A stretch of 32,000 bases of DNA from Candidatus Nanogingivalaceae bacterium (GTDB lineage Bacteria > Patescibacteriota > Saccharimonadia > Saccharimonadales > Saccharimonadaceae). Each line of letters starts with the position of its first letter. Within the stretch, counting starts at the first letter, position 1. Where the stretch lies: the NCBI GenBank assembly GCA_015257795.3, contig CP072208.2:450001-482000 (forward strand). Reading direction: 5' to 3'. This document shows positions 1,447-25,702 of the stretch, piece by piece. The translations under genes were made by a program, and so were the position numbers. A model generated the notes under the pieces. That model worked only from the letters and a program-made list of their open reading frames with translations. It was not told where the DNA came from and searched no databases.

Positions 1447-4400
1447 TTAGTCTTTAAGCACCACACACTCTTCACCAAGTAGCAAAACCAACTCTTTAAG
1501 TAGTTTCGAACTCGCATCAACTTTAAAGCGCATTCGAATTGCAGATTTTTCAACTTCACCAAGAACCAAGATTACCTCACTCATTCCAGGGAATTTTTCA
1601 CAGATTTTCCTTATCGAAAGCAAAGATTTATGATCGCTTGGATTCTTTATGTGCAAAAATACCCTTTGTATTTTTTCTGCCTGATAATTTTCCGCCGATC
1701 GAGACTTGTCTAGCGTCTTATTTGTATCTTGTGTTTTTAAAGTTGTTCCACTATTTTTTTGCGTGAATGTATGTTTTTTCCCATTCGAAACTCTTTGAGA
1801 AACAGTCTTAGTTTGTGGTACTTTTCTAGTCTTCAAGCCTTCTGCACGATGGCCAGTTGATTCATAATTCTCCAATTCTTCATCTGTTATAACCGAAACT
1901 GTTTCAGCAATAATTTGCGCATCTGGTTTTAAATTACCATCACGATCTCTTGCTGACACTTTGCCTTCAATTTTTAATACGGCATCAATATTTAACCTAT
2001 CGCCAATCTCTGCATATAGATTTGGGAAAATTATCACCTCACCTTCGCCAGTTTTATCTTCCATTTTAACGAAGGCCATTTTTGTTCCGCTTTTTGTAAT
2101 AATCGTTCGAACATCAATCACTATCCCGCCAATTGTTGCTTTTTGCCCATCCGTATTTGGCTGAACCTGCGAAAGGGGTTGTGTTTGTTCTTCGAAATAT
2201 TTAACATAACGATCTAATGGGTGCGCAGACACATATAGTCCCAATAATTCACGCTCCCAAGTTAAACGCTCTTTATCTGTATGCTGTTTTGGTGCAGTTA
2301 AAAGTTCAACGGTAGATTCAACCCGCATATCATCTGCACCCGCAAAACCAAATAAATCTGTTTGTCCAGAAAGAGCCTCTTTTTGGCTTTTTGAACCATA
2401 TTCTTGAATCCGCTCCAAATTAAACAGCAGATCAGATCGCGTACCGAATTCATCAAAAGCTCCTGTCATAATTAATGAATCCCAAGCCTTTTTATTGAAT
2501 TGACGCGCATTCACGCGTTTTGCAAAATCTAAAATTGAACTAAATTTTCCGCCCGTTTTTCTGGCCTCCAAAACAGCGTCGACAGCACCCGAACCAACAG
2601 CTTTAACAGCCAAAAGACCAAAACGAATCTTCTTTTCATGAGGCACGATAGCGAAGTCTTTAAATGATTCGTTCACGTCAGGTCCAAGAACCTGAATTCC
2701 CATTGAGCGACATTCGGCGATCTCAATAGCTAGTCGATCAGTATCATCAGAATCTGCCGTCATTAAGGCTGCCATAAAAGCATCTGGGTAGTGAGCTTTA
2801 ATATACGCCGTCCAATACGCAATCAAAGCGTAACAAGCGGCGTGCGATTTATTAAAACAATAGTTCGCAAACTCTTCAAGGTGATCCCAGAAAGCTTCAA
2901 CTTTTGCGCGATCAGCGTTAGAGTGTTTGACTGCGCCCTCAATAAACTCACCCTTCATTTTTTTCATTAGGTCGATTTTTTTCTTACCCACAGCCTTACG
3001 AAGAGTATCAGCCTGACCACCAGTAAATCCACTAACTTCCTTTGAAATCTGCATGAATTGCTCCTGGTAAACAAGAATTCCATATGTGTTTTTTAAAGCG
3101 TTCTCCATATGATCTTCATAATATGTTACAGGCTCTTCACCATGTTTTCGTGCAATAAACTTCGGAATTTCGCTCATTGGACCCGGGCGATATAGAGCCA
3201 CCATCGCAATAATATCTTCAAATTTCGAAGGTTTGAGCTCTCGAAGATAACGTTTCATTCCCGCAGATTCAAGCTGAAAAACTCCTGTAGAATCACCACG
3301 TGCTAGCAGCTCATAAGCCTTCTTGTCGTTAAGATCTAATTTCGAAAGGTCAATATCCACACCATACGTTCGTTTTATGATTTTTTGGGCTGTAGAAATA
3401 ATTGAAAGGTTTTTAAGACCCAGAAAGTCCATCTTCAACAAACCCAAATCTTCAACTTGCCCCATCGGAACTTGAGTTGCTACAACACCTTTTTGCGCCA
3501 TTTCAAGCGGTAGGTATTTTATTAGATCATCTGGCGCGATCACAACTCCACAAGCATGGACGCCATGGTTTCGAATAGTACCCTCGAGCTGCATCGCAAA
3601 GTCATAAACAGTCTTTGCGGTCGGATTTGTCTCATATTCATGCTTTAAATCCTGATCGTTCTCTAAAGAAACCCGAAGCGGTGTATGTCTACCCTGTGTT
3701 GGGTCTGGAACTAATTTCGCAAACCGATCCGCCTCAGAATATGGGACCTCCAAAACTCGTGCCACATCACGAACGGCGTTTTTAGCCATCATCTTACCAA
3801 AAGTTGCAATGTTCGCCACACGGTCAATACCGTATTTATCCGTACAATATTGAATAACTTCATTTCGCCGCGTATCTTGAATATCGACATCAATATCAGG
3901 CATAGAAATTCGATCAGGATTCAAAAACCTTTCAAAAAGCAAATCATATTCAAGCGGATCAAGATCGGTAATATGTAAGGCATAAGCAATAATAGATCCT
4001 GCAGCAGAACCACGCCCTGGACCAAAAACAATACCCTGTGATTTTCCCCAGTTAATAAAATCTTGAACGATCAAAAAGTAACCGTTATAACCCATTCCAT
4101 CGATCACCCCAAGCTCCATATCAACCCGATCTAAAACATTTTCTGGTAATTTTTTACGAATGTCTGGAATTGACATTTTTTTAACTTCATCAATAGGGAT
4201 TCCACCATACCTCTCTCCAAGCCCCTGAAAAACAAGCTTATCCAAATAAGCTTTTTCACTATCTTCACCATCGGGTAGCGGGAATTTTGGGATTAAGATC
4301 TTCCCGAACTCAAATTCGAAATTTACTTTTTCCGCAATATGTTTTGTATTTAAAATAATTTCCGGATCAATTTTTCCCCAGCGCTCGATAATATCTTTAG

Positions 4401-5592: not shown

Positions 5593-8729
<3,137 letters not shown>

Positions 8730-13166: not shown

Positions 13167-13469
13167 ATGAATATTACAAGTACATCTACAAGTACATCTA
13201 CAAGTACATTTGCTGTTGGTGATATTGTGCAGATTCTATATTCAAAGAATCCTGCAGGCAACTGTTGTATCGCTGTCGCTACAATAAGTGAAATACACGA
13301 TACTTATGTTAAAGTAATTGATATTCGCTTTTTTACTGGTAACGCAGTTATGAAAGCTACTAGCAATGAAACAACACCGACTATTTTGAGCAAAATTGCT
13401 TTCTCAAGGATCTCAAAAATTTCAGAAGGAGAATACTTGAGAGATATGTACCTGTGCTCATATGAGTAA
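13167..13469 (+). CDS. hypothetical protein with N-terminal (ST)n repeat
   Basis: 100-aa ORF with its own promoter and SD. No family was recognised. Confidence 0.6.
   Translation: MNITSTSTSTSTSTFAVGDIVQILYSKNPAGNCCIAVATISEIHDTYVKVIDIRFFTGNAVMKATSNETTPTILSKIAFSRISKISEGEYLRDMYLCSYE
13176..13211 (+). repeat. 12-bp tandem repeat x3 (ACAAGTACATCT) inside the 5' end of the CDS
   Basis: There are two perfect copies and a third with one mismatch. They encode TSTSTSTSTSTF. Confidence 0.9.
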
Positions 13470-13558: not shown

Positions 13559-15037
13559 TTACAAGCACGTTAAAAGACGGTTCAAATGAACCGTCTCAGA
13601 ATGAAGACAAACATCGTTTTTGATGTTTGTCTTTTTTATATTCTTACCTAATTCTCCTATAATCCAATAATATTGAGATATTTGGGTAAAATTATAGGTC
13701 TTTCCTGTCATCATTTTTACCAATTTTTTGATATTTAGACACGCTAAAGTAAGCCCAACCTTAGCTTCCATTTTGGACTTTCCTTTTTCTCTGGTATAAC
13801 GTAAGTTATGATATTCTTTAGCTGTTCCGAATAACCGTTCTATCGTTTCTTTCCGGTGTTGATACCGTTCTTTCATACCACTTTGATGGCGAATATCTTC
13901 ACAGACTTCTAGGGCATCTTTCCAAATATGACGCACAACAACTTTTTGGTGCTGGCGACTTTCAGTACAAATCGCTAACAAGGGACAGGTCTTACAAATT
14001 TTAGGATTACTTTTATACTCTCGATAACCTTCACGTGTGGTTGTACGATAAGTTAATACATGGTTCTCTGGACAAAGATAACAATCAAAATGCTCGTCAT
14101 AGACAAAGTCTTTTGGACGTAAAAAATCTTTCTTACCTCTTGGTCTAGTGTAAGGGAAAACTGGTGTAATCCCTTTTTCTAGAAGAAACTTGGCAATACT
14201 AGGTGTTTTATAGCCTGAATCCGCAATAATGAATTCAGGTGAGAATGGTTCTAGTTTGACAAAAAGAGCAGAGAAAGCCTGACTATCATGGATGTTTCCT
14301 GCTTCAACCGTATAAGCTAAGGCCCAACCGTGTTTATCACAAGCTACTTGAGCATTGTAAGCGAAGACCTCCTTATGTTCTCCCTTATGAAACCAACCAC
14401 TGTCTGGGTCCGTCGTTGATTGTTTCTTAGGTTTAGCCTCGCTTTTTTCGGCGGGCTTTAAGAGCTTTTTTGCGTGTTTTTTCCTATCTAAATTAATCTC
14501 AATCTCCAGTTGTTCACTCATGAATTTAGCTTTTTGATCAATAACAACAGTTTTGTACTTATGATTATTAGCAGCTGCCTTGATATGGGTCCCATCAATG
14601 AAGATTTCTGAGGGATCAATGAGCCCTGCTTCCAAAACATGATGAAGCACATGACTAAAAATGTGTGCTAACACTTCCTTGTTTTCAAAGCGTCGGCTAT
14701 AGTTCTTACCGTAAGTTGTAAAATGAGGCACCTTATCGTCCAGAGATAAGCCAAGAAACCAACGGTAAGCCGTATTCACCTCAATATCTTTAATGGTTTG
14801 GCGCATAGAACGAATGCCATAAAAACATTGAATCAACGGAATTTTAACTAATAAAACAGGGTCTAGACTAGGGCGACCATTATCCGAGGAATAACTATCT
14901 TCGACAAGATCATAAATAAAAGAGAAATCAATCGTTTCCTCGACTTTTCTTAGAAAATGGTCTTTAGGCACAAGTTCATCAAGCGTATAGAATCCTACTT
15001 GACGTCGATTGTATTCAGGATTTTCTTTGTGAAACAT
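13559..15037 (-). CDS. IS1182-family DDE transposase
   Basis: 492-aa ORF. The N-terminus (YTLDELVPKDHFLRKVEETIDFSFIYDLV...GRPSLDPVLLVKI...YGIRSMRQ) and the C-terminal LFGTAKEYHNLRYTR motif are typical of IS1182/IS5-like transposases. The last codons and the stop run past the terminal IR. Confidence 0.85.
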   Translation of the reverse strand: MFHKENPEYNRRQVGFYTLDELVPKDHFLRKVEETIDFSFIYDLVEDSYSSDNGRPSLDPVLLVKIPLIQCFYGIRSMRQTIKDIEVNTAYRWFLGLSLDDKVPHFTTYGKNYSRRFENKEVLAHIFSHVLHHVLEAGLIDPSEIFIDGTHIKAAANNHKYKTVVIDQKAKFMSEQLEIEINLDRKKHAKKLLKPAEKSEAKPKKQSTTDPDSGWFHKGEHKEVFAYNAQVACDKHGWALAYTVEAGNIHDSQAFSALFVKLEPFSPEFIIADSGYKTPSIAKFLLEKGITPVFPYTRPRGKKDFLRPKDFVYDEHFDCYLCPENHVLTYRTTTREGYREYKSNPKICKTCPLLAICTESRQHQKVVVRHIWKDALEVCEDIRHQSGMKERYQHRKETIERLFGTAKEYHNLRYTREKGKSKMEAKVGLTLACLNIKKLVKMMTGKTYNFTQISQYYWIIGELGKNIKKTNIKNDVCLHSETVHLNRLLTCL

Positions 15038-15160
15038 AGGAACACCTCATCAAATACCTTTTTCTTTTATTATACTCCTTCAAAGCAAGAAAAATCCCCA
15101 GAAGTATAACTTCTGAGGACTTTGTCTTCAATCTGAGACGGTTCAAATGAACCGTCTTTT
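13572..15160 (-). mobile_element. IS1182-family insertion sequence (about 1.59 kb)
   Basis: Terminal inverted repeats of about 40 bp lie at 13572-13611 and 15121-15160. Each has an outer 22-bp palindrome AGACGGTTCAAATGAACCGTCT and an inner CAGA(A/T)TGAAGACAAA. Confidence 0.8.
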
Positions 15161-15172
15161 TCATGTATTCAA

Positions 15173-15310
15173 CTATCGTTCACTAAAGGAGATTTTAAAA
15201 TTATACATTGTACAATTAGGATTTTTACAAACTTTTATAACTTTACCACGTGCAGCATCTTCTGCATAAAACCATAAAACTTCGTTACATTTTGTGCATC
15301 TTTCAGTCAT
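15173..15310 (-). CDS. small zinc-ribbon protein (45 aa)
   Basis: Translates as MTERCTKCNEVLWFYAEDAARGKVIKVCKNPNCTMYNFKISFSER, with a CxxC...CxxxxC pattern. An AGGAGG SD lies 6 nt upstream, so this is a shorter start than in the ORF track. Confidence 0.6.
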   Translation of the reverse strand: MTERCTKCNEVLWFYAEDAARGKVIKVCKNPNCTMYNFKISFSER

Positions 15311-15320
15311 ATTTGTCCTC

Positions 15321-15431
15321 CTATAGTTTATTACCACAGTTACAACACCGTTCTGGTCGGTCGCTTGTTTTTCGCCCGCAGGTTGGGCATTCAATAGTTG
15401 CTGTAAGAATTTTTTTAACTTGTTTAATCAT
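15321..15431 (-). CDS. small zinc-ribbon protein (36 aa)
   Basis: Translates as MIKQVKKILTATIECPTCGRKTSDRPERCCNCGNKL, with a CPTC...CCNC pattern. It is below the ORF-track cutoff. Confidence 0.5.
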   Translation of the reverse strand: MIKQVKKILTATIECPTCGRKTSDRPERCCNCGNKL

Positions 15432-15436
15432 AATGA

Positions 15437-15580
15437 TTACCATCCAGATTTCTTTTGACAAGTTCCATAATTGCAGTTATGGTAAGAAAGATTGTGGTAA
15501 ATAGCTTCTTTACACCAATCACATTTATTACCGCTTAAAGCTCGTTCACAAGCACAATACCATTCATTAGGGTTTCCCAT
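15437..15580 (-). CDS. small Cys-rich protein (47 aa)
   Basis: Translates as MGNPNEWYCACERALSGNKCDWCKEAIYHNLSYHNCNYGTCQKKSGW. An AAGGAGG SD lies 7 nt upstream. It is below the ORF-track cutoff. Confidence 0.55.
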   Translation of the reverse strand: MGNPNEWYCACERALSGNKCDWCKEAIYHNLSYHNCNYGTCQKKSGW

Positions 15581-15597
15581 TACGATTCCTCCTTGTT

Positions 15598-16011
15598 TTA
15601 TATTTTAAGTCCAAAGTTTCTCGCCCATTCTTCCAAAGTTAGCCCACTCTGTGTTGATAAATCTAAAAGAGCCATTTCTATTTTCGCACGCCCCCCTTCG
15701 ACTTCCGTTTTCCATCGTAAAGCTTCCTCTAGGTTTGGTATGACCACTTCTAATCTTCTTACAAATCTTTCGGTATCTTCTTTTTCTCGAAAAAGTTGCT
15801 TGTATTCATCATGATTTGCGGAACCTAGCTTTCCTCCAATTTCATTGAGGTCAGCTAAAAGTTCATAACGGATATTTTGGGCTGTTTCTAGCACTCTTCT
15901 AGCTAGTTCTAATTTTTCGTTGTATTCCTTTGTAGCAGACTCATTTGCTTGTATTTTAAACCATAAAATTCCACCAGTAATCGCAATTACTAATAACATC
16001 AAAAAAGCCAT
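15598..16011 (-). CDS. hypothetical membrane-anchored coiled-coil protein (137 aa)
   Basis: It has an N-terminal TM helix (FLMLLVIAITGGILWF) followed by a charged helical region. An AAGGAG SD is present. It is the first gene of a tightly packed four-gene operon. Confidence 0.65.
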   Translation of the reverse strand: MAFLMLLVIAITGGILWFKIQANESATKEYNEKLELARRVLETAQNIRYELLADLNEIGGKLGSANHDEYKQLFREKEDTERFVRRLEVVIPNLEEALRWKTEVEGGRAKIEMALLDLSTQSGLTLEEWARNFGLKI

Positions 16012-16109
16012 ATTTTCTCCTTAACAAAACCTCTAAGTATTTGTAGCACATTAAAAATCGTATTTATCTTAATACGAAAAACCTCCTTTTTTTATTTTCA
16101 CTCAAAAAT

Positions 16110-16123
16110 CCCTGCTACAATAG
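16110..16123. repeat. 14-bp inverted repeat, left copy (CCCTGCTACAATAG)
   Basis: It is the perfect reverse complement of 16985-16998. The pair brackets the small serine recombinase gene. Confidence 0.9.
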
Positions 16124-16133
16124 GGGTGAGTTT

Positions 16134-16161
16134 GTTTTAGCGAACGGTCGTTTGTTAAAAC
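16134..16161. repeat. 28-bp dyad-symmetric site, left copy (GTTTTAG-CGAACGGTCGTTTG-TTAAAAC)
   Basis: It has the same outer arms as 16249-16276, but the core is in the opposite orientation. Confidence 0.85.
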
Positions 16162-16248
16162 AATCAAAGTTACCAATAAAAATATTTAAAATGCTGATTT
16201 GACAAGGTTTATAGGCTCTGTCAGGTTGGCATTTTTTGATTTTTCATT

Positions 16249-16276
16249 GTTTTAGTTGACGACCGTTTACTAAAAC
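16249..16276. repeat. 28-bp dyad-symmetric site, right copy (GTTTTAG-TTGACGACCGTTTA-CTAAAAC)
   Basis: It is the inverted partner of 16134-16161, separated from it by an 87-bp spacer. Confidence 0.85.
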
Positions 16277-16289
16277 TGTTGATAGGTTA

Positions 16290-16318
16290 AATTTACTATT
16301 TTTCTAAGGAATTGTCAA
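16290..16318 (-). promoter_or_regulatory. promoter reading through the 28-bp site pair toward the 137-aa gene
   Basis: Minus strand TTGACA, 17-nt spacer, TAAATT, directly after the recombinase stop codon. Confidence 0.45.
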
Positions 16319-16322
16319 TCAA

Positions 16323-16967
16323 TTATAGATGATTTTTTCTATTTATTTGAATACCATTGCGCTTTAGTACATTATAAATAGTTGCGGTAGAAATATTCAG
16401 CTGATTGGCTATATTTCGAACAGAATTTTCTTTTTGCTGGTATTGTGCAATAATTTGCTTTTCTTTATCTTTCGCTATTCCTTTATTACCAAGTTTCACA
16501 CCTTTTTCTTTCGCTTTACGCAGTCCGTCTTTAGTACGTTCAGAAATAGCTTGAAGCTCCCATTCTGCAACATAACCCAGCATCAAGCAAAAGAATTTCC
16601 CAGTTAAAGAATCTGTTTCAATATTTTCATGAATTGATTGAAGATGAACACCATGTTTGGTTAAATCTTCCATAATAGCAGAGAGGTGAAACATCTTTCT
16701 GGTAAGTCTATCCAATTTATATACGACAAAATTTGTTTCAACTCCTTGTTTAGCATAATTCTTGGCTAATTTTAACGCTTTGTCAAGTTGTTGTCGCTCC
16801 TGATTTCCACCTGAGTCTTTTTCAATATAAAGCTTGTCACAGAAGTTAAGAGCTTCTGTTTGAACAGATAACCCTAATTCCTGACGATTATCTGTCGAGC
16901 TAACTCGGGCGTAACCTATGGTTATGGTTTCGATGTTTTCTAATTTGTTCTTGTGATGATTTGTCAA
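16323..16967 (-). CDS. small serine recombinase (resolvase/invertase family)
   Basis: 214-aa ORF with the catalytic IGYARVSS motif, DRLTR, and a C-terminal HTH (VRNIANQLNISTATIYNVLKR). It uses a TTG start with an AGGAG SD. Confidence 0.9.
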   Translation of the reverse strand: MTNHHKNKLENIETITIGYARVSSTDNRQELGLSVQTEALNFCDKLYIEKDSGGNQERQQLDKALKLAKNYAKQGVETNFVVYKLDRLTRKMFHLSAIMEDLTKHGVHLQSIHENIETDSLTGKFFCLMLGYVAEWELQAISERTKDGLRKAKEKGVKLGNKGIAKDKEKQIIAQYQQKENSVRNIANQLNISTATIYNVLKRNGIQINRKNHL

Positions 16968-16984
16968 AATTTCTCCTTTCTTTA

Positions 16985-16998
16985 CTATTGTAGCAGGG
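16985..16998. repeat. 14-bp inverted repeat, right copy (CTATTGTAGCAGGG)
   Basis: It is the partner of 16110-16123. It lies between the recombinase SD and a TATAAT -10 hexamer (17001-17006, minus strand). Confidence 0.9.
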
Positions 16999-17025
16999 TG
17001 ATTATATCTTTAGAAGAATGTTGAA

Positions 17026-17057
17026 ATAAAAGAAAAGACCCACAATTTTTGTGAGTC
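17026..17057 (-). terminator. intrinsic terminator after the 76-aa gene
   Basis: Minus strand GACTCACAAAAATTGTGGGTC followed by TTTTCTTTTATTT. Confidence 0.65.
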
Positions 17058-17074
17058 TGAGAAGTTAGCGATTC

Positions 17075-17305
17075 CTACTTAATTAAACTTTTCTCCCAGG
17101 CGATTGCCTTTTCTTGAACTTTGAGCTCATATGAAGTTCTTTCTTCTAATTTCATATTTCTAATTTCTTCCTGAGCTTCTTGTAATAATTCCAGTTGTTT
17201 AATTGCTGGATAAAGGGCAGTTCCGATTATTCTTATTAACTCCTTGTTATCATCTAGTAATTTATTATGAGTTTGAGTAGTATTTAGGGCTTGTGTTTTA
17301 GACAT
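17075..17305 (-). CDS. hypothetical small helical protein (76 aa)
   Basis: The ORF has a GAGGA SD and starts 15 nt after the stop of the upstream gene. The sequence is coiled-coil-like, and no family was recognised. Confidence 0.6.
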   Translation of the reverse strand: MSKTQALNTTQTHNKLLDDNKELIRIIGTALYPAIKQLELLQEAQEEIRNMKLEERTSYELKVQEKAIAWEKSLIK

Positions 17306-17320
17306 GTCTATTCCTCTTTT

Positions 17321-18460
17321 CTAAAAATTATCATAAATAGTTTTCAAGAAATCAAAATCTTCATTAAGTAGATTATTGCTATGTTTAAGTGCTCGCACAC
17401 GAATATCAGTCATATTATTGCGTACAACTCTCATATTGTAACTCAGTTGTTCAATAATTACAATACTTAGTGATTTTATTGTATTTTGCATAAAGTCACT
17501 ATCCAGAAAATCTTTCTCGCCTATAAAAGTATTACTAAAATCATATTCCATGAATCCATAAAACTCCGTTTCTCTATTATTTATATTATCGCTCCCAATT
17601 CTAAAGATAATTTTTCTATGTTTATCAATCTTCAACTTTTTACTCGTTTTAGGGCTTTGAATCTCTTGGAATCGTTCATCGCTAACTTCATAACAGGTTT
17701 TATGGTTTAAGCTACTCTCAGAGAAAAATAATTCGTCATCAACAAACGATGAGTACATCTTATCTCTAGTATCAGAGGAATAAAAGTATAGACGTATATA
17801 AATTTCATCGTCTAATAATTTTTTCATTGCAAATTTAGTATCTTTCAATATATTTTTCAGAAAATTTTTCAAACCCTTGCAGTAAATTTTATCAAAAATA
17901 GTAATCATTTTAGTTGATAAAATCTTTAATAAAAACATTATACCATCTATATTCGAGGAAGCTGTTAGTTCATTGTTATTTTTTAATGCTTCCGTTGTGT
18001 TATATATTTCGTGAATAATAAGATTAGAAAACTCGTATTGATTAAAGGACTTATCCGTGTGCGTCAAATGAATTGTATTATTCTGAGTTAACCTTGAGCT
18101 ATATTGTAACAACTCCTCTAATAGTTTATTCTTTTCTTTTACCTCGTTCCACTTTTTAATAAAAGAAAAGAATTGAGCAATAACTATAGCAGTCATAAAA
18201 ATGATAGTCCATATTGCAAAAAATTCAGATACAGTTGTAGGTTGTTTGTTTGATATTTTTTCAATTTTAAATTCACTTAAATATCTAAAAAGATTCGATA
18301 CCCAGTTTAGAAAATCAGTATTATCGATGATTAAAGTAAATAATCCAGAGATAAAACCTAATAATGTTATTGCTTTGAACGATAAAAAGTAATCTACAAA
18401 ACTAAACCACTGATTTTTATCAGGAAAAAAATCTATAATAGAGTGAATCATTTTTTTCAT
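17321..18460 (-). CDS. hypothetical membrane protein (two N-terminal TM helices plus a cytoplasmic domain of about 270 aa)
   Basis: The ORF track gives 17321-18478 with a TTG start. The ATG at 18460, preceded by GGAGA, is the more likely start. The TM segments are AITLLGFISGLFTLII and FFAIWTIIFMTAIVIAQFFSFI. No family was recognised. Confidence 0.6.
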   Translation of the reverse strand: MKKMIHSIIDFFPDKNQWFSFVDYFLSFKAITLLGFISGLFTLIIDNTDFLNWVSNLFRYLSEFKIEKISNKQPTTVSEFFAIWTIIFMTAIVIAQFFSFIKKWNEVKEKNKLLEELLQYSSRLTQNNTIHLTHTDKSFNQYEFSNLIIHEIYNTTEALKNNNELTASSNIDGIMFLLKILSTKMITIFDKIYCKGLKNFLKNILKDTKFAMKKLLDDEIYIRLYFYSSDTRDKMYSSFVDDELFFSESSLNHKTCYEVSDERFQEIQSPKTSKKLKIDKHRKIIFRIGSDNINNRETEFYGFMEYDFSNTFIGEKDFLDSDFMQNTIKSLSIVIIEQLSYNMRVVRNNMTDIRVRALKHSNNLLNEDFDFLKTIYDNF

Positions 18461-18592
18461 TTTATATCTCCATTTCAAATATAAACCTAATTTCTTATCA
18501 ACTTATTCTATCATAAAAGCGCTACGGACTCATTTGAAAACACTTACATCCAATGATTTTATTGAATTTATATCTGATTTCCGAATATTTTT

Positions 18593-19690
18593 TTACATAA
18601 AATACTTCTGTTCCATCAAACAAAAGAATACCAATTCATTTTTATTCATTTTTTCACCTGAACCCACCGTAAACTCTATTTTATCTTGTTTTGCGAAAGC
18701 TCTATTTTCTAGATAATTTACAATATTTTCTGTTAAGGTTATCATATCTTTCATTTTCGAAGCGGTATAGTCATAGCTGGCTTTTATAGACAAAGCAAAA
18801 CTTTTAATCATAAAAATTTTATTAATAGCTTCTTTTGGTAAAAATCTATCCAAAGCTTTATAAAAATCTGCTTCGGATTGGCAAAATCCAGTAATTAAAG
18901 TTAATTTTGGGCTGTTCTCAAAGTTTTCTTCAATAAACTGTGTAATTCGTTCGTTGATGGTTTCGTTTTGAATTATTAAACCATTCTGGATAATTGGCAT
19001 TTTAGAAATAGAATCTTGAATCAAAACTTTTAAAGTGGGTGAAAAGAGATTTTTATTATCGTTTAACGTTTCAGGCTTATATAAATCAAAATAAAAAATC
19101 TGCTGTTTGCTTTTTAAAGATTCTTCAATAGTTTTTCTATGTGAATATGGCATTAATAAAACCTCATTCTCAAGATATTTAAAAATGTGCTGGTTAATGA
19201 TTTGCGTTTGTCTTAATTCTTCTGAGTTTTCGGAAGGAATATTCGAAAGATTTACCAAAAGAATGAAAAGGCTTGCCAAGTAAAGTTCATCTTCATGGCA
19301 ATGATTAAGTAATTCTATTTTTTCGCTACCAAAAACAACGGTAGCTTTTTGGGTTTGGTTTAAAAGAGTTGATTTGATTTTAAAAACAGCTTGCCTATAA
19401 TCAAAAGTTTCATCACGGTTTAAATCTTTCAAAACATCAGCTATCCTTTGGGATTGAAATCCTAAATCGCTAATTGGTAAAGCTTCTCGATAAAATTCTG
19501 GAACTTCTTCATCACCCGTAAAGAGGCGGTTACTGGAAACACGGTTAATTTCTGGAATAAATGAAATTTTAGGGTTGTTTTCACTCGCTAATCTATTCAA
19601 AATACTATTGACGAAATCTTCTTGGTTTCGTTTTTTCTTTTCAGATTTTTGCAAAATATAACAAAACCATCCTAATCTAAATTCGGTCAC
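18593..19690 (-). CDS. hypothetical protein (365 aa), with a possible degenerate N-terminal HTH
   Basis: It uses a GTG start with an AAGGAGA SD 6 nt upstream. No catalytic motif was recognised. The N-terminal 60 aa loosely follow an XRE-like pattern. Confidence 0.6.
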   Translation of the reverse strand: MTEFRLGWFCYILQKSEKKKRNQEDFVNSILNRLASENNPKISFIPEINRVSSNRLFTGDEEVPEFYREALPISDLGFQSQRIADVLKDLNRDETFDYRQAVFKIKSTLLNQTQKATVVFGSEKIELLNHCHEDELYLASLFILLVNLSNIPSENSEELRQTQIINQHIFKYLENEVLLMPYSHRKTIEESLKSKQQIFYFDLYKPETLNDNKNLFSPTLKVLIQDSISKMPIIQNGLIIQNETINERITQFIEENFENSPKLTLITGFCQSEADFYKALDRFLPKEAINKIFMIKSFALSIKASYDYTASKMKDMITLTENIVNYLENRAFAKQDKIEFTVGSGEKMNKNELVFFCLMEQKYFM

Positions 19691-19821
19691 ACGATTTCTC
19701 CTTGAGATTTCTGAGATTTTTTACCTGATGAATGAGATAAAAATATTCGCTACACTATAACCATAAACAAAGTCGACAATGTTTATAACATAAATTATAT
19801 CAAAATCAAAGGAGAAATCTC

Positions 19822-20082
19822 ATGAATCATATCCAAAAATCAACCCCAAAAGCAGAACTTTCTCAACTTGTTAATCCCTATCAGTTAAAAGTCGCCAAAA
19901 CTCTAAGCGAAGCGATGGCAGATAATCAAGCCTTAGAGCTTCTAGCTAACGATATTTTATATAAAGTGGGCAATTTGGCACTTACTCAGTCTGAAATACT
20001 TAAAAATACTCCTGAAGCTAAAGAGTATACAGATTATATTCTTAAAGCATTCACTTATTATGCTACTGAAAAAATGAAATGA
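19822..20082 (+). CDS. hypothetical protein (86 aa)
   Basis: The ORF has an AAGGAG SD. It is the first gene of the plus-strand transfer-side operon. Confidence 0.55.
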   Translation: MNHIQKSTPKAELSQLVNPYQLKVAKTLSEAMADNQALELLANDILYKVGNLALTQSEILKNTPEAKEYTDYILKAFTYYATEKMK

Positions 20083-20091
20083 GGTAGCTTT

Positions 20092-20295
20092 ATGATGGAT
20101 TACTTTATAGCTTTTATAGTTATCGTTATTATTACTGTATTTCTTTGGGATTGGTTCGAAAAACCAAAACAAGCAAACGAAAAACACTGTAGCGAAGAAG
20201 AAATTGCTCTGGAGGAATTTCTGGAGAAACGGCAAGAAATCAATGAACTTTTCTTGGTTGCTAAAGCAGAAATGCGAAAAATTTCAAGAAAATAA
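20092..20295 (+). CDS. hypothetical single-pass membrane protein (67 aa)
   Basis: It has an N-terminal TM helix (FIAFIVIVIITVFLW) and a charged helix. A GAGG SD is present. Confidence 0.55.
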   Translation: MMDYFIAFIVIVIITVFLWDWFEKPKQANEKHCSEEEIALEEFLEKRQEINELFLVAKAEMRKISRK

Positions 20296-20452
20296 AAGGA
20301 CTGTTTAGACTAGACAAATGGTCAAAATATGTTGAAATATACTACTGTTTCATTGTTTAAATTTCATTCCAATCGCTCTTAAAACTGAAGGTAGCTAAAT
20401 TTAACTTTTCACCAACTTTCTTGTATAAATATAGGCAGAAAGGAGACCAGCC

Positions 20453-20620
20453 ATGAAAAAACTAATAGCATATATTCTTGGATTTGTTGCTTGTGCTTGG
20501 CTTATTAACTGGGCGTTGAAACTAATTCTGGAAGTTTGGTGGTTCTTGGTTTTGATGACGGCGGTCGTTTTCATCGGCTGGCTTACCTTTCGGATTATTA
20601 AAACTAAAGATTGGAGGTAG
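20453..20620 (+). CDS. hypothetical small two-TM membrane protein (55 aa)
   Basis: Translates as MKKLIAYILGFVACAWLINWALKLILEVWWFLVLMTAVVFIGWLTFRIIKTKDWR. An AAAGGAG SD is present. Its stop abuts the next gene's start. It is below the ORF-track cutoff. Confidence 0.55.
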   Translation: MKKLIAYILGFVACAWLINWALKLILEVWWFLVLMTAVVFIGWLTFRIIKTKDWR

Positions 20621-20622
20621 AG

Positions 20623-22842
20623 ATGAAAAGAAAATTTGAAACACTATCTTGGAGTGAACTCAACTGGATGCGCCCGTTTAAAATAGATGATGTGAAATCT
20701 ATGCTGGGTCAACTGGTGGGGTTAACTCGGCGTAAAGCGGTTATTTTTGAAATTCGATTATCTAAGAATCGCGTACGCTATCTATTAGGAACAGAAGAAC
20801 AAGATAAGCGACATATCAGCCAACTAATTCAATCACACCGAGCTATTCAGTTTTCAAGAGCTCCTAAACGCGAAAAACTTTCGGTTGCACGGTTAGTGAA
20901 CATCAAAGAATCTCACTATGCTTTAAAAACGGACTCTGTAGAAAACATGATACGTTCAAGCCTTGCAATTTCAAAAATACTTCAGCCAGATGAAACAGTA
21001 GTTGTTCAGTTGGTCATTGGTGCAGGCTCACCACCTCGGCCGCAGCCAAAAGATTTGCCGAATTTATCCGTTAAATGGTATCAAGTGATTACAAATAATA
21101 TTCCTGAGCTTTCCGAAAACTCCAAAAAGCTGATGAAACAAAAATTAAACCAATCTACTTTTAAGTGTGAAATTCGTCTTGGTGTCCAATCTCGCAGTAT
21201 TTTACGAACAAAAGAATTTTTTGATAGCTTGTTAAGTAGTTTTCGCATGATGGAATCAAATGCAACCATTGAATTAAAACCATTTGCTATCCAAAAACTA
21301 AATCAAGCACAACCTTCTTGGGCTTATCCCTATAGTTTGGGAATTTCAGACCTTGCTTGTTTTCTACTTCTACCAATTGGTGAAGAAAATATTGCAGGCG
21401 TGCCAAATGTTCACCCTAAATTAGTGACTCCGCCTTTGGGCTACAATATTAACCGAAAAAATCAGCGAAGTTTGGCGCAAACGGTTGAAAATCAATCAAG
21501 ACCAATTCAAATTTCAGCACAAGCTGGCAAAAAGCACACCGTTTTTCTCGGCTCAACAGGTTGCGGGAAAACTACTGCCATGAGTCACTTGATTTTATCA
21601 GATATAAAATCTAAACATCATAGTGTAGTTGTGGTGGATGCCAAAGGTCAACTTACTCATGAACTTTTAGAGCGCACACCAACTGAACACGATGAAGATA
21701 CAGTAGTCATTTCACCAACCACCAAACGAGTTGTTGGCATCAATCCTTTTGAACTCACCAAATATGGTATTGAACCCGAAGTTATCGCAGATTATCTACT
21801 GGAGCTATTTAAAGGGCTTTATCCTGAACATTTTGGAATTTACTCGCTGGACATTTTGTCACACAGTTTTCTAACGCTTGCTAGAATTCCAAATACCTCT
21901 TTAGTGATGTTACCAAGTTTGCTCACTAATAAGTCCTTTCGAAATAAACTATTAAGAGAGTTAAAAGACCCAATTGGACTGGAGAGCTTCTGGAACTGGT
22001 TTGAGCTACTCAGTGAAGCCCAACGTCACCAGATATTAAACCCCATTTTGAATAAATTCCGACAGTTTTTGCTTCGTCCGCAACTTCGGGCAATGTTGGG
22101 ACAAACTAATCCAAATTTCAGTCTTGCAGAAATCTTCAAAAGCCGAAAAATCGTATTGATTCCACTAAATAAATCGGTAATCGGTTCAGAATCTGCGAAA
22201 CTCATTGGTAGCCTCATCACTTCAATGCTCTGGATGTTAATTTTGCGCCAGTCGTCAGTTGAGCCAAGCAAACGCCAATCGGTCTTTATCTATATTGATG
22301 AAACACCAAGTTTCCTAGGAATCCCCAATTCTAACTTAGATGAAGCACTTTCACAATCTCGCCAATTTAATGTTGGCTGGAATATCGGCTTCCAGCATCT
22401 TGCACAGATGTCACCTCAGTTAAAAGCTGGTATTGAATCTAATGTTGCGAATAAAATTGTTTTTGGCTTAAATCTTGATGAAGCTCGCGAAATGGCAAAA
22501 TATACTCTGGAGATTGATAAAGAAGATTTTTACAGTTTACCACCATTTTGGGCATATATTCGTACTGAAATTTCACAAAATACTTATCAATGGATTATTG
22601 GTAAAGCCTACCCACCTAAACCAAAAATTAGAGATAGTCGCACGCCATTTTTGAATAGCTTGAGCCGATACGGACAAGATATTTCAGAAATTGAAAGCCA
22701 ATTTGAAAACTACATTTTTGAAAAATCTGCTTCAAAAAATGAAGATTCTAATCAAAAATTAACAGATTTAGGGAGGAAAAAGCGTTCCAATCGCTCTTCG
22801 AATCGTGTTGATGAAGAAAAATCTTCCACCCCTGACAAATAA
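20623..22842 (+). CDS. P-loop DNA-transfer coupling ATPase (TraD/VirD4/TcpA-like, FtsK-HerA superfamily)
   Basis: It has Walker A GSTGCGKT, Walker B VFIYIDETPSF, and a following GFQHLAQM motif. The ATG at 20623, preceded by GGAGG, is preferred over the TTG at 20611. Confidence 0.6.
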   Translation: MKRKFETLSWSELNWMRPFKIDDVKSMLGQLVGLTRRKAVIFEIRLSKNRVRYLLGTEEQDKRHISQLIQSHRAIQFSRAPKREKLSVARLVNIKESHYALKTDSVENMIRSSLAISKILQPDETVVVQLVIGAGSPPRPQPKDLPNLSVKWYQVITNNIPELSENSKKLMKQKLNQSTFKCEIRLGVQSRSILRTKEFFDSLLSSFRMMESNATIELKPFAIQKLNQAQPSWAYPYSLGISDLACFLLLPIGEENIAGVPNVHPKLVTPPLGYNINRKNQRSLAQTVENQSRPIQISAQAGKKHTVFLGSTGCGKTTAMSHLILSDIKSKHHSVVVVDAKGQLTHELLERTPTEHDEDTVVISPTTKRVVGINPFELTKYGIEPEVIADYLLELFKGLYPEHFGIYSLDILSHSFLTLARIPNTSLVMLPSLLTNKSFRNKLLRELKDPIGLESFWNWFELLSEAQRHQILNPILNKFRQFLLRPQLRAMLGQTNPNFSLAEIFKSRKIVLIPLNKSVIGSESAKLIGSLITSMLWMLILRQSSVEPSKRQSVFIYIDETPSFLGIPNSNLDEALSQSRQFNVGWNIGFQHLAQMSPQLKAGIESNVANKIVFGLNLDEAREMAKYTLEIDKEDFYSLPPFWAYIRTEISQNTYQWIIGKAYPPKPKIRDSRTPFLNSLSRYGQDISEIESQFENYIFEKSASKNEDSNQKLTDLGRKKRSNRSSNRVDEEKSSTPDK

Positions 22843-22935
22843 AGGTTTTCAGGATTTTTACTCACACGACTTACTCCGTAACTAAGCACATTTTACAGGA
22901 GCACACCCTTTAAATTTTAATGGAGAACAAAACAG

Positions 22936-23739
22936 ATGAAATGGAATTACAAAATAGATAACAACACGCAAATTCTTTACTTTTTGAGTCAAGCAAGATT
23001 TGCTACCACTAACCAATTAGCCAGACTCTTTTTCGCGGATAGCGCTCGATTTGAGACTACTATTCGCCGCACTAATTTTGCACTGCAAAGCCTGAAGAAA
23101 GCTGGATTGGTTTCACATTTAAAACGACGAGTTGGTGGCGCACGCCGTGGCTCCGCTTCTTATGTTTGGCAAATTACTTTTCAAGGACTAAAATTTCTTA
23201 AAAACCAAGATGAAACAGTTGTTTTGCGTTATAAAAATAAATACGAACCAACCCAGCACCACGTTGAACACACTTTGGGGATTACGGAAATTTTTGTTGA
23301 GACACTGGAGACCGTTCGAGATTCAGAAAAACTGTCGCTTGAAACTTTTTCCTTTGAGCCAAACTCTTGGCGCAGCTACCAAAAACTTTCTGGTGTTGGA
23401 ATGACCCTAAAACCAGATGCTTATTTGGAACTGATTAATCACGATTATGAAGACCATTATTTTCTGGAAATAGACCGAAGCACGGAAAGTCTTGTACGTA
23501 TCCTAAATACTTGTAAGAAATATATTGAATATTATCGGTCAGGTATTGAACAACGACAAAAGGAAGTTTTCCCCTATGTTTTGTGGGTTGTGCCAGACGA
23601 CAAGCGAAAGCTGGCGATTTCGAAAGTGATTCAAAAAGAACTATACAATTTTTGGGAATTATTCACCGTGATTACTTTGGACGAATATTCAGATTATATC
23701 AAAGGAGGTATTTCGAATGAACCAGAAGAATCAAGATAG
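22936..23739 (+). CDS. replication-relaxation (Replic_Relax, PF13814-like) family protein
   Basis: It has an N-terminal wHTH-like region (ILYFLSQARFATTNQLARLFF), a HHVEHTLG motif, and KPDAY...YFLEIDRSTES (PD-ExD/K-like). It is adjacent to the coupling ATPase, as is usual for this family. The assignment is from memory. Confidence 0.6.
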   Translation: MKWNYKIDNNTQILYFLSQARFATTNQLARLFFADSARFETTIRRTNFALQSLKKAGLVSHLKRRVGGARRGSASYVWQITFQGLKFLKNQDETVVLRYKNKYEPTQHHVEHTLGITEIFVETLETVRDSEKLSLETFSFEPNSWRSYQKLSGVGMTLKPDAYLELINHDYEDHYFLEIDRSTESLVRILNTCKKYIEYYRSGIEQRQKEVFPYVLWVVPDDKRKLAISKVIQKELYNFWELFTVITLDEYSDYIKGGISNEPEESR

Positions 23740-23884
23740 AGACTCAAAACAGGCTTCACACACCGCCGATGAAATTTGTCGAATTGGTCGAACGACTTAC
23801 TTAATCCGTCACCGTTTTACTGGAAATCGCAATCTTGAAAATGTCCTAGAAAGGTTGATTTTAAGCGATAAATCACTACTTTAA
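23717..23884 (+). CDS. TnpW-like small protein (55 aa)
   Basis: Translates as MNQKNQDRDSKQASHTADEICRIGRTTYLIRHRFTGNRNLENVLERLILSDKSLL. The IGxTTYxVxxxF...LExxLxRLI pattern recalls TnpW peptides that sit next to large serine recombinases. An AAAGGAGG SD is present, and it overlaps the previous gene's end. Confidence 0.5.
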   Translation: MNQKNQDRDSKQASHTADEICRIGRTTYLIRHRFTGNRNLENVLERLILSDKSLL

Positions 23885-23896
23885 CAGTAGTAAAAA

Positions 23897-23905
23897 TGGT
23901 ATAAT
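23897..23905 (+). promoter_or_regulatory. extended -10 element upstream of the large serine recombinase
   Basis: TGgTATAAT. No good -35 was seen. Confidence 0.35.
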
Positions 23906-23945
23906 AGAGGTATAAGGTGTGTGAACTCCAAAAGGAGAAAAACAC

Positions 23946-25649
23946 ATGAACAGAACTTTGACAATTTCAGATTATAGACAAGTAGATACTTCAAAACTTT
24001 CAGATATTACGGTAGTTTATTGTCGCTTAAGTCAAGACGATGGTCTGGACGGAGACAGTAACTCGATTACCAATCAGAAGAAAATTCTGCTTGATGTAGT
24101 TACAAGAGAAAATCTCCCCAATCCTATTTTGTTTGTTGACGATGGCTTTAGTGGCACAAATTTTGACCGTCCAGCTATTTCGGAAGCACTTAGACTAGTG
24201 GAAAATCGACAAGTTTCAAACTTTATCGTTAAGGATTTGAGCCGTTTAGGGCGGTCTTATATCAAGGTTGGTCAACTAACGGAAATTACTTTTCCGAGCT
24301 TTGATGTTCGCTTTATCGCCTTAAATGATGGCGTAGATTCGAATAAACCTAATGAAACTAATTCAATTTTCTTGCCAATCAAGAGTCTAATGGATGAAAT
24401 GTATGCGGCAGATACCAGCAAGAAGATTCGGGCGGTGGTTCAAGCTAAAGCCAAAGCTGGCGAGCGTGTAACTACTAACCCACCTTACGGCTATCTCAAA
24501 GATTCAAACAACCCTAAAAATTGGATTGTTGACCCAGTTGCCAGCGAAGTTGTGAAACGGATTTTTCAAGAAGCGAAAAGCGGAAAAAGCCTTTCGGAGA
24601 TTGCTAAAGGGTTAGAAAATGACAAAATTTTTAAACCAGACCGCCACCGAATAGAAATCGGTTTGAAGTCTATTTCTTCCAGCCCAAATGTGGAAACTTT
24701 GCCTTATTTTTGGACGCGAGAAACCCTAAGCGCTATCTTAGGGCGTGAAGAGTATCTTGGGCATACTGTCAATCTTCGAACTCGCACGAAATCTTATAAA
24801 GATAAACGTAAAGTAGATAACCCAAAAGAAAATTGGCTGATTTTCAAAAATACTCATGAAGCAATTATCGACCAAGAAACTTTTGATATTGTTCGAAAAA
24901 TCCGAAATCATAAGCGGTCTAATCAACGGTATAAAAATCGGACTGGTCACGAGAATTTGTTTGCGGGATTGGTTTTTTGCGGAACTTGTGGGCGAAAGCA
25001 TTATTTTTGCCCACAAGAGAAAAATGGACTCAACCACGACCATTACAAGTGTTCTGGCTACCGTAAGCCGATTGATGGTTGTGAAAATCCCCACTATATT
25101 CAAAAATCTGCCTTGATTGAGATTGTGAGTGGTAAGCTCCGCCAAACTATTCAGGAAATCCACTTCGACCAAGAAGCCTTTTTGAAAAAGTTAGAACAGC
25201 AAAGCCAAGCTCAATTCAGCAAAAATAATAAACGCCAGCGCCAGCAACTCCAAAAGGATGAACACCGCTCTAAAGATATTGACAGCATCATTCAGAAGCT
25301 TTATGAAGATAATCTACTTGGAAAAATTTCAGATGAACGCTTTGTGAAGCTAAGTCAGAGCTATGAAGAAGAACAGAAACAACTTCAAACTTCCATTTCT
25401 GATTTAACTGAAAAACTCGCCAAACAACAAGAAGATAGCTTGAATATCTCCAAGTTTATGGCGAGAATTTCAAAATATACAGAGCTTCCAAAATTAACCG
25501 TTGAAATAGTGAATGAACTGATTGACAAGATTGTTATTCAGAAACCAACTGGCACGAAACGCAATCGAATTATTCAGGTTGACATTTACTACAATTTCAT
25601 CGGAAAATTAAATAATGAAAAAAGCGAGCCAAACAACTGGGCTCGCTAA
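23946..25649 (+). CDS. large serine recombinase (TnpX/TndX/phage-integrase type)
   Basis: 567-aa ORF with the catalytic VVYCRLSQDDG...SNSITNQK motif, DLSRLGR, a recombinase domain, a Cys-rich zinc ribbon (CGTCGRKHYFC...YKCSGY...C) and a C-terminal coiled coil. Confidence 0.92.
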   Translation: MNRTLTISDYRQVDTSKLSDITVVYCRLSQDDGLDGDSNSITNQKKILLDVVTRENLPNPILFVDDGFSGTNFDRPAISEALRLVENRQVSNFIVKDLSRLGRSYIKVGQLTEITFPSFDVRFIALNDGVDSNKPNETNSIFLPIKSLMDEMYAADTSKKIRAVVQAKAKAGERVTTNPPYGYLKDSNNPKNWIVDPVASEVVKRIFQEAKSGKSLSEIAKGLENDKIFKPDRHRIEIGLKSISSSPNVETLPYFWTRETLSAILGREEYLGHTVNLRTRTKSYKDKRKVDNPKENWLIFKNTHEAIIDQETFDIVRKIRNHKRSNQRYKNRTGHENLFAGLVFCGTCGRKHYFCPQEKNGLNHDHYKCSGYRKPIDGCENPHYIQKSALIEIVSGKLRQTIQEIHFDQEAFLKKLEQQSQAQFSKNNKRQRQQLQKDEHRSKDIDSIIQKLYEDNLLGKISDERFVKLSQSYEEEQKQLQTSISDLTEKLAKQQEDSLNISKFMARISKYTELPKLTVEIVNELIDKIVIQKPTGTKRNRIIQVDIYYNFIGKLNNEKSEPNNWAR

Positions 25650-25677
25650 TATTAACCCATTTAACTAAACTGCTATA

Positions 25678-25702
25678 TGTCAGGTCAGCTGATGCGGGTT
25701 TT
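25678..25702. repeat. candidate right junction (attR-like) of the integrated element
   Basis: TGTCAGG-TCAGCTGAT-GCGGGTTTT. This is the mirror image of 13498-13523. Confidence 0.5.

Follow-up and report, generated by a model that had tools for sequence, protein, structure and literature searches.

A small serine recombinase beside a predicted invertible one-way terminator, on a mobile element shared by Streptococcus salivarius and G6 Saccharibacteria

What does a small serine recombinase flip when two nested pairs of inverted repeats lie around and beside its gene? The question is raised by a 32,000-nucleotide stretch of DNA (hereafter the window; contig CP072208.2, positions 450,001 to 482,000) from a Candidatus Nanogingivalaceae bacterium, corresponding to the complete genome JB003 (CP076102) of clade G6 Saccharibacteria. 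Here a gene for a 214-aa recombinase (16323-16967, minus strand) is enclosed by a perfect 14-bp inverted repeat, and two 28-bp sites in opposite orientation follow its stop codon, ahead of a small operon. An initial annotation, made from the sequence alone, proposed one or two phase-variable inversions: a Hin-style inversion of the 889-bp segment that carries the gene, and a smaller one, likened to those of Mpi, in which either a promoter or a terminator might be turned. Comparison of homologous copies answers in favour of the inner sites, and the piece of DNA between them probably acts as a one-way terminator that is flipped between an outside promoter and a set of interchangeable cargo genes.

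The inner sites carry the argument. The cargo-side crossover site (16134-16161; central dinucleotide GT at 16147-16148) and the recombinase-proximal site (16249-16276; central AC at 16262-16263) together form a 35-nt inverted repeat of 80%, and the site pattern GTTTTAGYNNACGGTCGTNNNYTAAAAC occurs at these two places only in the window, with 0 occurrences expected in shuffled sequence. The two sites with opposite-facing cores are present as first described, and can be refined to a 13-2-13 structure centred on GT/AC: GTTTTAGCGAACG-GT-CGTTTGTTAAAAC in the window, with GTTTTAGCAAACG-GT-CGTTTGTTAAAAC as an example of such a site. Counting both central dinucleotides, the invertible unit spans 117 bp (16147-16263), with an interior at 16162-16248. 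A one-genome-per-species scan gave 48 loci with recombinases 75-94% identical to that of the window, mostly in Streptococcus (mitis, oralis, infantis, cristatus, suis, azizii) with several labelled Saccharibacteria, and the switch is present in 45 of them with an interior of 87-89 bp. Orientation was scored by an A/T-rich flank marker, the marker AAATGCTGATT being ambiguous because the hairpin in the interior is nearly symmetric; on this basis 37 loci stand opposite to the window (orientation A) and eight stand as the window does (orientation B). Their interiors resemble that of the window at 0.78-0.85 when reversed and at 0.62-0.66 when read forward, or vice versa, and a comparison of A with B copies shows the four half-sites in just the new pairings that strand exchange at the central GT/AC would produce.

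The same difference separates copies that are otherwise identical. Exact-protein look-ups placed the identical 214-aa recombinase at ten chromosomal sites, each time as part of the same element: three copies (L051, L055 and L054, the last being that of the window's own genome) match the window as it stands with 0/2801 mismatches, and five (L052, L053, L056, L057 and L058) match it with 0/2801 after in-silico inversion of 16147-16263, as against 61 mismatches without that inversion. Five further recombinase alleles were examined, among which P0085, P0061 and P0228 contain A/B pairs that become identical on in-silico inversion (0/960), whilst P0044 and P0083 were scored for orientation only. In four groups of identical recombinase the A/B difference is therefore the exact inversion alone (0 mismatches in 960-2801 nt), and both orientations exist in natural, otherwise identical sequences, as in an inverton. 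Of 103 distinct copies in total, 74 are in orientation A; the window is one of the 29 in orientation B, a state seen in no fewer than three divergent lineages of the switch. Beside a CAAX protease gene, one and the same S. salivarius insertion site is occupied by A or by B depending on the sample. A contig from a mixed metagenome (L108) stops at about position 4206 at ...AACGGTCGT (...GTTTTAGTAAACGGTCGT), the last base common to A and B, inside the site core; a break at this point of divergence is expected from a de Bruijn assembler when one sample holds both states.

Judged by these sequence comparisons, the inner pair is a real and precise site-specific inversion switch with exchange at the site centres, and the inner inversion proposed in the initial annotation is supported, more strongly than the sequence alone could have allowed. 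Dyad 13-2-13 sites exchanged at a central GT/AC fit a serine recombinase, and the recombinase next door is presumably the invertase that acts on them. As in the sites of Hin, Gin, Cin and Pin, a 2-bp centre is flanked by half-sites in inverted orientation, and the two sites form an inverted pair, although they are 28 bp long where those are 26 bp. It is hardly credible that the two orientations are instead an assembly artefact, or the product of rare RecA recombination between short inverted repeats with no dedicated enzyme. Assemblers can indeed mis-orient segments between inverted repeats, and every orientation call reported here comes from a consensus assembly; but no exact inverted match is longer than about 10 bp (AAACGGTCGT), which is well short of assembler k-mer sizes, so that junction reads fix the orientation and assembler ambiguity is excluded as the cause of the two states. 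The copies also include isolate genomes and a complete nanopore-based genome, exchange is always central in dyad 13-2-13 sites beside a serine recombinase, and orientation correlates with host (described below), unlike an artefact.

What, then, of the outer repeat? The perfect 14-bp inverted repeat CCCTGCTACAATAG (16110-16123 and 16985-16998, with 861 nt between the arms) does enclose the whole recombinase gene, and the TATAAT hexamer noted beyond its right arm (17001-17006, minus strand) is there. Hin-style inversion of the whole segment between the arms, which would uncouple or recouple that outside promoter and the downstream operon, is nonetheless very improbable. It can draw on the perfection of the repeat around the gene, on the conservation of both copies across loci, and on the fact that module homology starts or stops at the repeats in some loci: in L003, L004, L019 and L027, homology between loci begins exactly at the right copy. 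Yet the recombinase is inverted relative to its flanks in 0/103 copies, whereas the small segment is flipped in 29/103, and the unit that does invert holds neither the recombinase gene nor a promoter, where a Hin-type segment holds both. Between the 14-bp repeat and the exchanged 13-bp half-sites there is no resemblance, the repeat is not taken to be a recombination site, and the TATAAT is not conserved across loci. Chance alone, moreover, should yield about 0.33 perfect 14-mer inverted repeats within 1 kb per 32-kb window (at least one in 22% of simulated windows); the repeat is thus not significant alone and takes its weight from its conservation in other loci. Of the two inversions first envisaged, the inner one is supported and the outer one is not.

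The conserved part of the outer repeat invites another explanation. Only the core TGCTACAATAG is common to both copies, the flanking 2-3 bp varying independently, and no covariation between the two copies, sought as a hint of exchange, was found. Most simply, this core (TG-n-TACAAT) would be an extended -10 promoter box that is used twice, or else a shared operator. The right copy (16985-16998, minus strand) contains TGCTACAAT (16995-16987), which resembles an extended -10 box and has AG after it, and sits just upstream of the ribosome-binding site of the recombinase, for which it is probably the promoter; its core is kept in 83 of the 86 copies examined, the other three being cut by the contig end upstream. 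The left copy (16110-16123) belongs to a candidate antisense promoter, P_anti (16095-16125, plus strand; TTTTCA-15-TG-C-TACAAT), pointing into the switch. Here the 16-bp element is intact in 70/86 copies and the TGCTACAAT core in 85/86, and at the equivalent position in L002 a scan calls a promoter with TG before its -10. The left element (16110-16125, with equivalents in L059-L070) is at the same time a small dyad, CCCT-N8-AGGG, both ends of which are changed together to ACCT-N8-AGGT in 13 loci; through this single compensatory change a 4-bp stem, or else a binding site with symmetry, would be preserved. A CCCT..AGGG hairpin was considered as an RNA element and rejected, its fold being no better than those of shuffled sequences (z -0.9 and -1.6).

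The recombinase itself has the architecture expected of the small serine family. Its N-terminal catalytic domain matches Pfam Resolvase (PF00239; 3.3e-32, residues 17-157), with YARVS aligned to the serine nucleophile motif YVRVS of Gin, and its C-terminal helix-turn-helix (HTH) domain matches HTH_38 (1.8e-07) and HTH_7 (1.2e-03) over residues 168-204. Among solved structures, Gin invertase and Tn3/gamma-delta resolvase come closest (about 1e-19) with scores that are level (Gin 72.8 bits, Tn3 resolvase 72.7 bits), and the protein is best described as a generic small serine recombinase that fits invertases and resolvases alike. The NCBIfam model for Mpi (NF009949) aligns over its full length, but at 56.1 bits against a cut-off of 272, so that the analogy with Mpi holds for the architecture and fails for family membership. 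Its 797 homologues carry only the public names 'resolvase', 'DNA invertase' or 'recombinase family protein', and IMG/VR contains no close relative, the best reaching 36% identity. Three genomes, those of S. azizii (L034/L035), Streptococcus sp. M334 (L025/L047) and S. mitis OMI649 (L005/L006), each hold two recombinase-switch modules with differing cargo; the sites are nearly identical, and the recombinases may therefore act on each other's sites. In L020 the recombinase is kept (89% identical), similarity to the window stops at its stop codon, and neither a switch nor the CCCTATTGTAGCAGGG element that closes other modules was found.

If the inner segment is what turns, the next question is what it carries. 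The segment contains a predicted one-way intrinsic terminator (16192-16244, plus strand), with a hairpin at 16192-16231 and a U-tract at 16232-16244, which in the window lies antisense to the recombinase and the cargo; this is state B. The minimum free energy of the window's hairpin is -23.5 kcal/mol (z -5.5) on the plus strand, as against -8.6 kcal/mol (z 0.05) on the minus strand. Across three divergent variants the strong strand gives -23.5, -25.2 and -23.5 kcal/mol (z -5.5, -7.1 and -4.1) and its complement -8.6, -10.1 and -11.6 kcal/mol (z about 0 to -2), a strand difference of 13-15 kcal/mol. The hairpin is one-sided because at least four G·U wobbles in its stem turn into A·C mismatches on the complement. 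When 46 copies are aligned on the same strand, 96.7% of the cells of the 17-bp helix can pair, compared with 27-50% when the partner columns are slid, and three pairs are changed on both sides. The helix cells outside Watson-Crick pairing comprise 155 G·U and only 10 A·C, a bias that points to an RNA hairpin read from one strand rather than to a palindrome bound by protein as DNA. At the equivalent position in L002 a scan calls a terminator on the cargo-sense strand, with 20 pairs, a loop of 7 and a T-run; searches of Rfam returned no match in the region. In silico, then, only one of the two orientations places a Rho-independent terminator on the sense strand, and, so far as folding models can tell, this hairpin would terminate transcription.

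The commonest design among small invertible elements is a different one, in which a promoter within the flipped segment drives the cargo in one orientation, as in fimS, in the cassettes controlled by Mpi or at SZO08560 of S. zooepidemicus. A promoter of this kind in the 87-bp interior is improbable here. The interior does hold a TTGACA (16199-16204, plus strand), and a 116-bp invertible 'promoter region' beside a streptococcal recombinase has been described (Holden 2009, PMC2654543). Promoter scans of three sequence variants, however, find no sigma-70-like promoter inside the flipped segment on either strand, in agreement with the earlier view that the spacer lacks a convincing complete promoter. 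The interior TTGACA belongs to the hairpin stem and reads TTTAAT in the commonest variant, the hairpin with its U-tract is what is conserved and covaries, and a strong conserved promoter lies just outside, aimed into the switch. The choice between terminator flip and promoter flip, which the initial annotation had left undecided, is in this sense settled in silico as a terminator flip.

That outside promoter, P_out (16290-16318, minus strand; TTGACA-17-TAAATT), is located past the recombinase stop codon but ahead of the switch, through which it points to the cargo. It had been proposed to fire into the mini-cassette, and it is both found by a scan and conserved: every lineage has a perfect TTGACA at a 17-bp spacing to TAAATT, TACATT, TAAACT or TAAAGT, and the S. 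suis-type loci retain the hexamer and the spacing despite a different spacer sequence. A conserved predicted promoter therefore stands upstream of, and outside, the invertible element, as a terminator-type switch would have it.

Downstream, the window's cargo operon (15173-16011, minus strand) consists of four open reading frames (ORFs). One (15598-16011) encodes a 137-aa protein whose N-terminal part contains a membrane helix, and the other three (15437-15580, 15321-15461 and 15173-15394) encode small peptides that are Cys-rich or zinc-ribbon-like; Pfam, NCBIfam and PADLOC assign a function to none of these products. Homology between modules ends 10-25 bp past a conserved CCCTATTGTAGCAGGG, beyond which at least five unrelated gene sets are found: small membrane proteins with Cys-rich peptides, as in the window; lipoproteins with lipobox motifs; LPXTG-anchored proteins in the S. 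suis-type loci; and further sets. Most of the alternative cargo at other loci has no family matches. In most cargo classes the first ribosome-binding site follows directly after the module, so that expression must come through the switch.

Taken together, we regard it as probable that the switch consists of a serine recombinase and an invertible one-way terminator placed between an outside promoter and the cargo. The comparisons bear directly on the precision of the inversion and on the strand asymmetry and conservation of the hairpin; the working of the switch would follow from these as a model. The recombinase would exchange strands at the central GT/AC dinucleotides, flipping the 117-bp unit, and P_out would transcribe through the flipped segment toward the variable cargo. 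In orientation A the terminator would lie on the cargo-sense strand and stop both P_out transcripts and read-through from the recombinase, leaving the cargo OFF; in orientation B, that of the window, it would be reversed, and read-through would reach the operon of the 137-aa membrane protein and Cys-rich peptides, which would be ON or leaky ON. This assignment of ON and OFF follows from the predicted direction of the terminator, and switching may be fast enough to count as phase variation. If the antisense box were active, the terminator might further toggle between two convergent promoters, letting one pass at a time.

The antisense box also admits a reading in which the switch mainly targets the recombinase: the terminator would end its messenger RNA in state A, or block antisense transcription from TGCTACAAT (16113-16121) in state B, and so set the rate or bias of switching. 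As the principal function this is unlikely, though it has points in its favour. The antisense extended -10 is conserved in all lineages and is scored as a promoter in L002, the strong terminator faces it in B, and feedback of this sort would be in keeping with the marked preference for A in streptococci. The antisense promoter is, however, a prediction, the strong conservation of P_out would be left unexplained, and an effect on the recombinase is compatible with control of the cargo without replacing it.

Several considerations weigh against a terminator switch that controls the cargo. Both termination and promoter activity are in-silico predictions, and the orientations are known from assemblies of different copies rather than from within one clone. 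Copies that share an insertion site mostly share their orientation too, which could reflect slow switching or strong selection. The weak-strand hairpin is followed by a partial U-run, and some termination in orientation B is possible. Finally, a stretch ahead of the window's operon (16038-16082, minus strand) separates it from the switch. This holds a weak hairpin with a U-run (16053-16082; -8.3 kcal/mol, z -2.2) and then a separate, third promoter-like box, TGCTACAAA (16038-16049); the hairpin had been pointed out before, as had the box, which was described as a partial third copy and reads TGCTACAAATA on the minus strand. Since these lie in between, control of the window's operon may be partial and the coupling loose; the arrangement is restricted to the window's cargo class, among whose loci it is conserved.

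A flipped-terminator switch has a natural precedent. In cwpV of Clostridioides difficile, inversion in the 5' leader forms a Rho-independent terminator (PMC5386303), and the two systems are alike in having the promoter outside the invertible element (Cdi1 in cwpV), in the position of that element within the 5' leader of a gene for a surface protein, and in a terminator that stops transcription in one orientation. They differ in that the cwpV element is flipped by a tyrosine recombinase, RecV, encoded elsewhere, whereas here a serine recombinase lies next door; in that the terminator here is wholly within the flipped segment and one-way through its G·U asymmetry; and in that the present system is a portable module, carried on a mobile element, with interchangeable cargo. 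Terminator-type inversion as such is therefore known. With Hin, Gin, Cin and Pin the module shares a small serine recombinase with a C-terminal HTH domain, but the segment here is 117 bp and carries a terminator rather than a promoter or alternative gene ends, and the recombinase gene lies outside it. Inversion by that family requires a recombinational enhancer bound by Fis, and neither Fis nor such an enhancer system is known from Streptococcus or Saccharibacteria.

Mpi of Bacteroides fragilis, likewise a serine recombinase, flips regulatory cassettes of about 200 bp upstream of surface-structure operons; unlike the present enzyme, of which there is one per module acting on a terminator, it flips promoters at many distant loci. 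Its repeats reportedly have a 10-bp ACGT-rich core resembling ACGGTCGT. Closer in taxonomy is the 'PinR' switch of S. zooepidemicus (Holden 2009; Steward 2015), in which the SZO08550 recombinase lies beside a 116-bp invertible region (SZO08560) upstream of a gene for an LPXTG surface protein (PMC2654543). Both occur in streptococci, both place a recombinase beside an invertible region, and some S. suis-type loci here have LPXTG cargo; the PinR system is described as a promoter inversion, the two being compared by their repeats and by description, and its repeats GTAGACTTTA/TAAAGTCTAC are absent from 89 loci and from the window region. A further parallel comes from synthetic biology, where in 'transcriptor' gates large serine integrases flip asymmetric terminators between promoter and gene at att sites, normally in one direction only. 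The logic of a one-way terminator between promoter and gene, flipped by a serine recombinase, is the same; those gates are engineered, whereas this module is natural and apparently reversible.

The module adds to the known repertoire of inversion switches a self-contained design, in which a presumed serine invertase, a predicted one-way terminator, a constitutive promoter and interchangeable cargo are combined in about 890 bp on a mobile element. Searches for inversions that look for promoters in the flipped segment would miss the function of such a switch. With 797 recombinase homologues and several copies per genome, it is common in oral and animal streptococci, and may contribute to surface variation among mitis-group, salivarius and suis streptococci.

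The element that carries the window's copy at its left end spans about 10.5 kb (15136-25693) and looks like an integrative mobilizable element. Its boundaries are set by the end of homology and by L017: homology of all related copies stops at 15136, and in L017 the lysS region is joined to the 25694 region within about 300 bp. Besides the switch the element encodes a VirD4-like coupling protein (20611-22842), a Replic_Relax protein (22936-23739) and a large serine recombinase/integrase with DUF4368 (23946-25649). Identical copies occupy more than 15 distinct intergenic positions, often immediately beyond the terminator of a gene. Integrative mobilizable elements of this kind have been reported in S. 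salivarius (PMC7563491). In JB003 the element has been described as a 'putative prophage' between PinE invertase homologues, about 95% similar to S. salivarius, with no switch described (PMC8386444). The prophage label looks wrong: gene content and scattered intergenic sites fit an integrative mobilizable element, and IMG/VR lacks a close relative. Megablast of 15100-17400 against plasmids and phages returned nothing.

Copies of the element that are 100% identical over the 2.8 kb compared are found in S. salivarius and in G6 Saccharibacteria, which points to very recent exchange of DNA. Placed by the proteins on their flanks, copies belong either to Streptococcus, mostly S. salivarius, or to Ca. 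Nanogingivalaceae/Saccharibacteria, and the state of the switch divides along the same line: 14/14 saccharibacterial copies are in B and 60/63 streptococcal copies in A (Fisher p = 8e-13), counts that are not independent and come from consensus assemblies in which some bins could be wrong. The pattern is repeated in four different alleles and many insertion sites. It could arise through selection on cargo expression, through host factors that bias the recombinase or through preferential transfer of one state.

The G6 Saccharibacteria are ultra-small epibionts. It is conceivable, and offered here tentatively, that the host sets the switch: an identical element would move between S. salivarius and G6, with the terminator keeping its surface-protein genes mostly OFF in the former and ON in the latter. 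If so, the element would indicate which organism lives on which and would toggle expression according to its host, as the counterpart in nature of synthetic flipped-terminator gates. It has been guessed that streptococci host the uncultured G6 epibionts (PMC8386444); the recent exchange sharpens that guess, and the opposite switch states provide a testable handle on the relationship.

Other features of the element and its surroundings may be recorded briefly. Three ORFs of the element, of 76, 385 and 365 aa (17075-19690, minus strand), are conserved, have 27-31% G+C and match nothing in Pfam, NCBIfam or PADLOC; some allele groups have other small ORFs in place of the 385-aa one. Abutting the left end of the element is an IS1182-like transposase gene (13559-15037; 492 aa, DDE_Tnp_1_6/DUF772), present only in L054. 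Between lysS and this insertion sequence, at the start of a 100-aa ORF (13167-13469), lies a perfect 12-bp tandem repeat, TACAAGTACATC, of 2.9 copies (13175-13209), which encodes a Ser-Thr run. At lower coordinates, the ribosomal RNA operon has the order 16S, tRNA-Ala, tRNA-Ile, 23S, 5S on the minus strand, and its 23S match (5593-8714) comprises 3122 bases against a model of 2925 positions, with about 200 bases of insertions.

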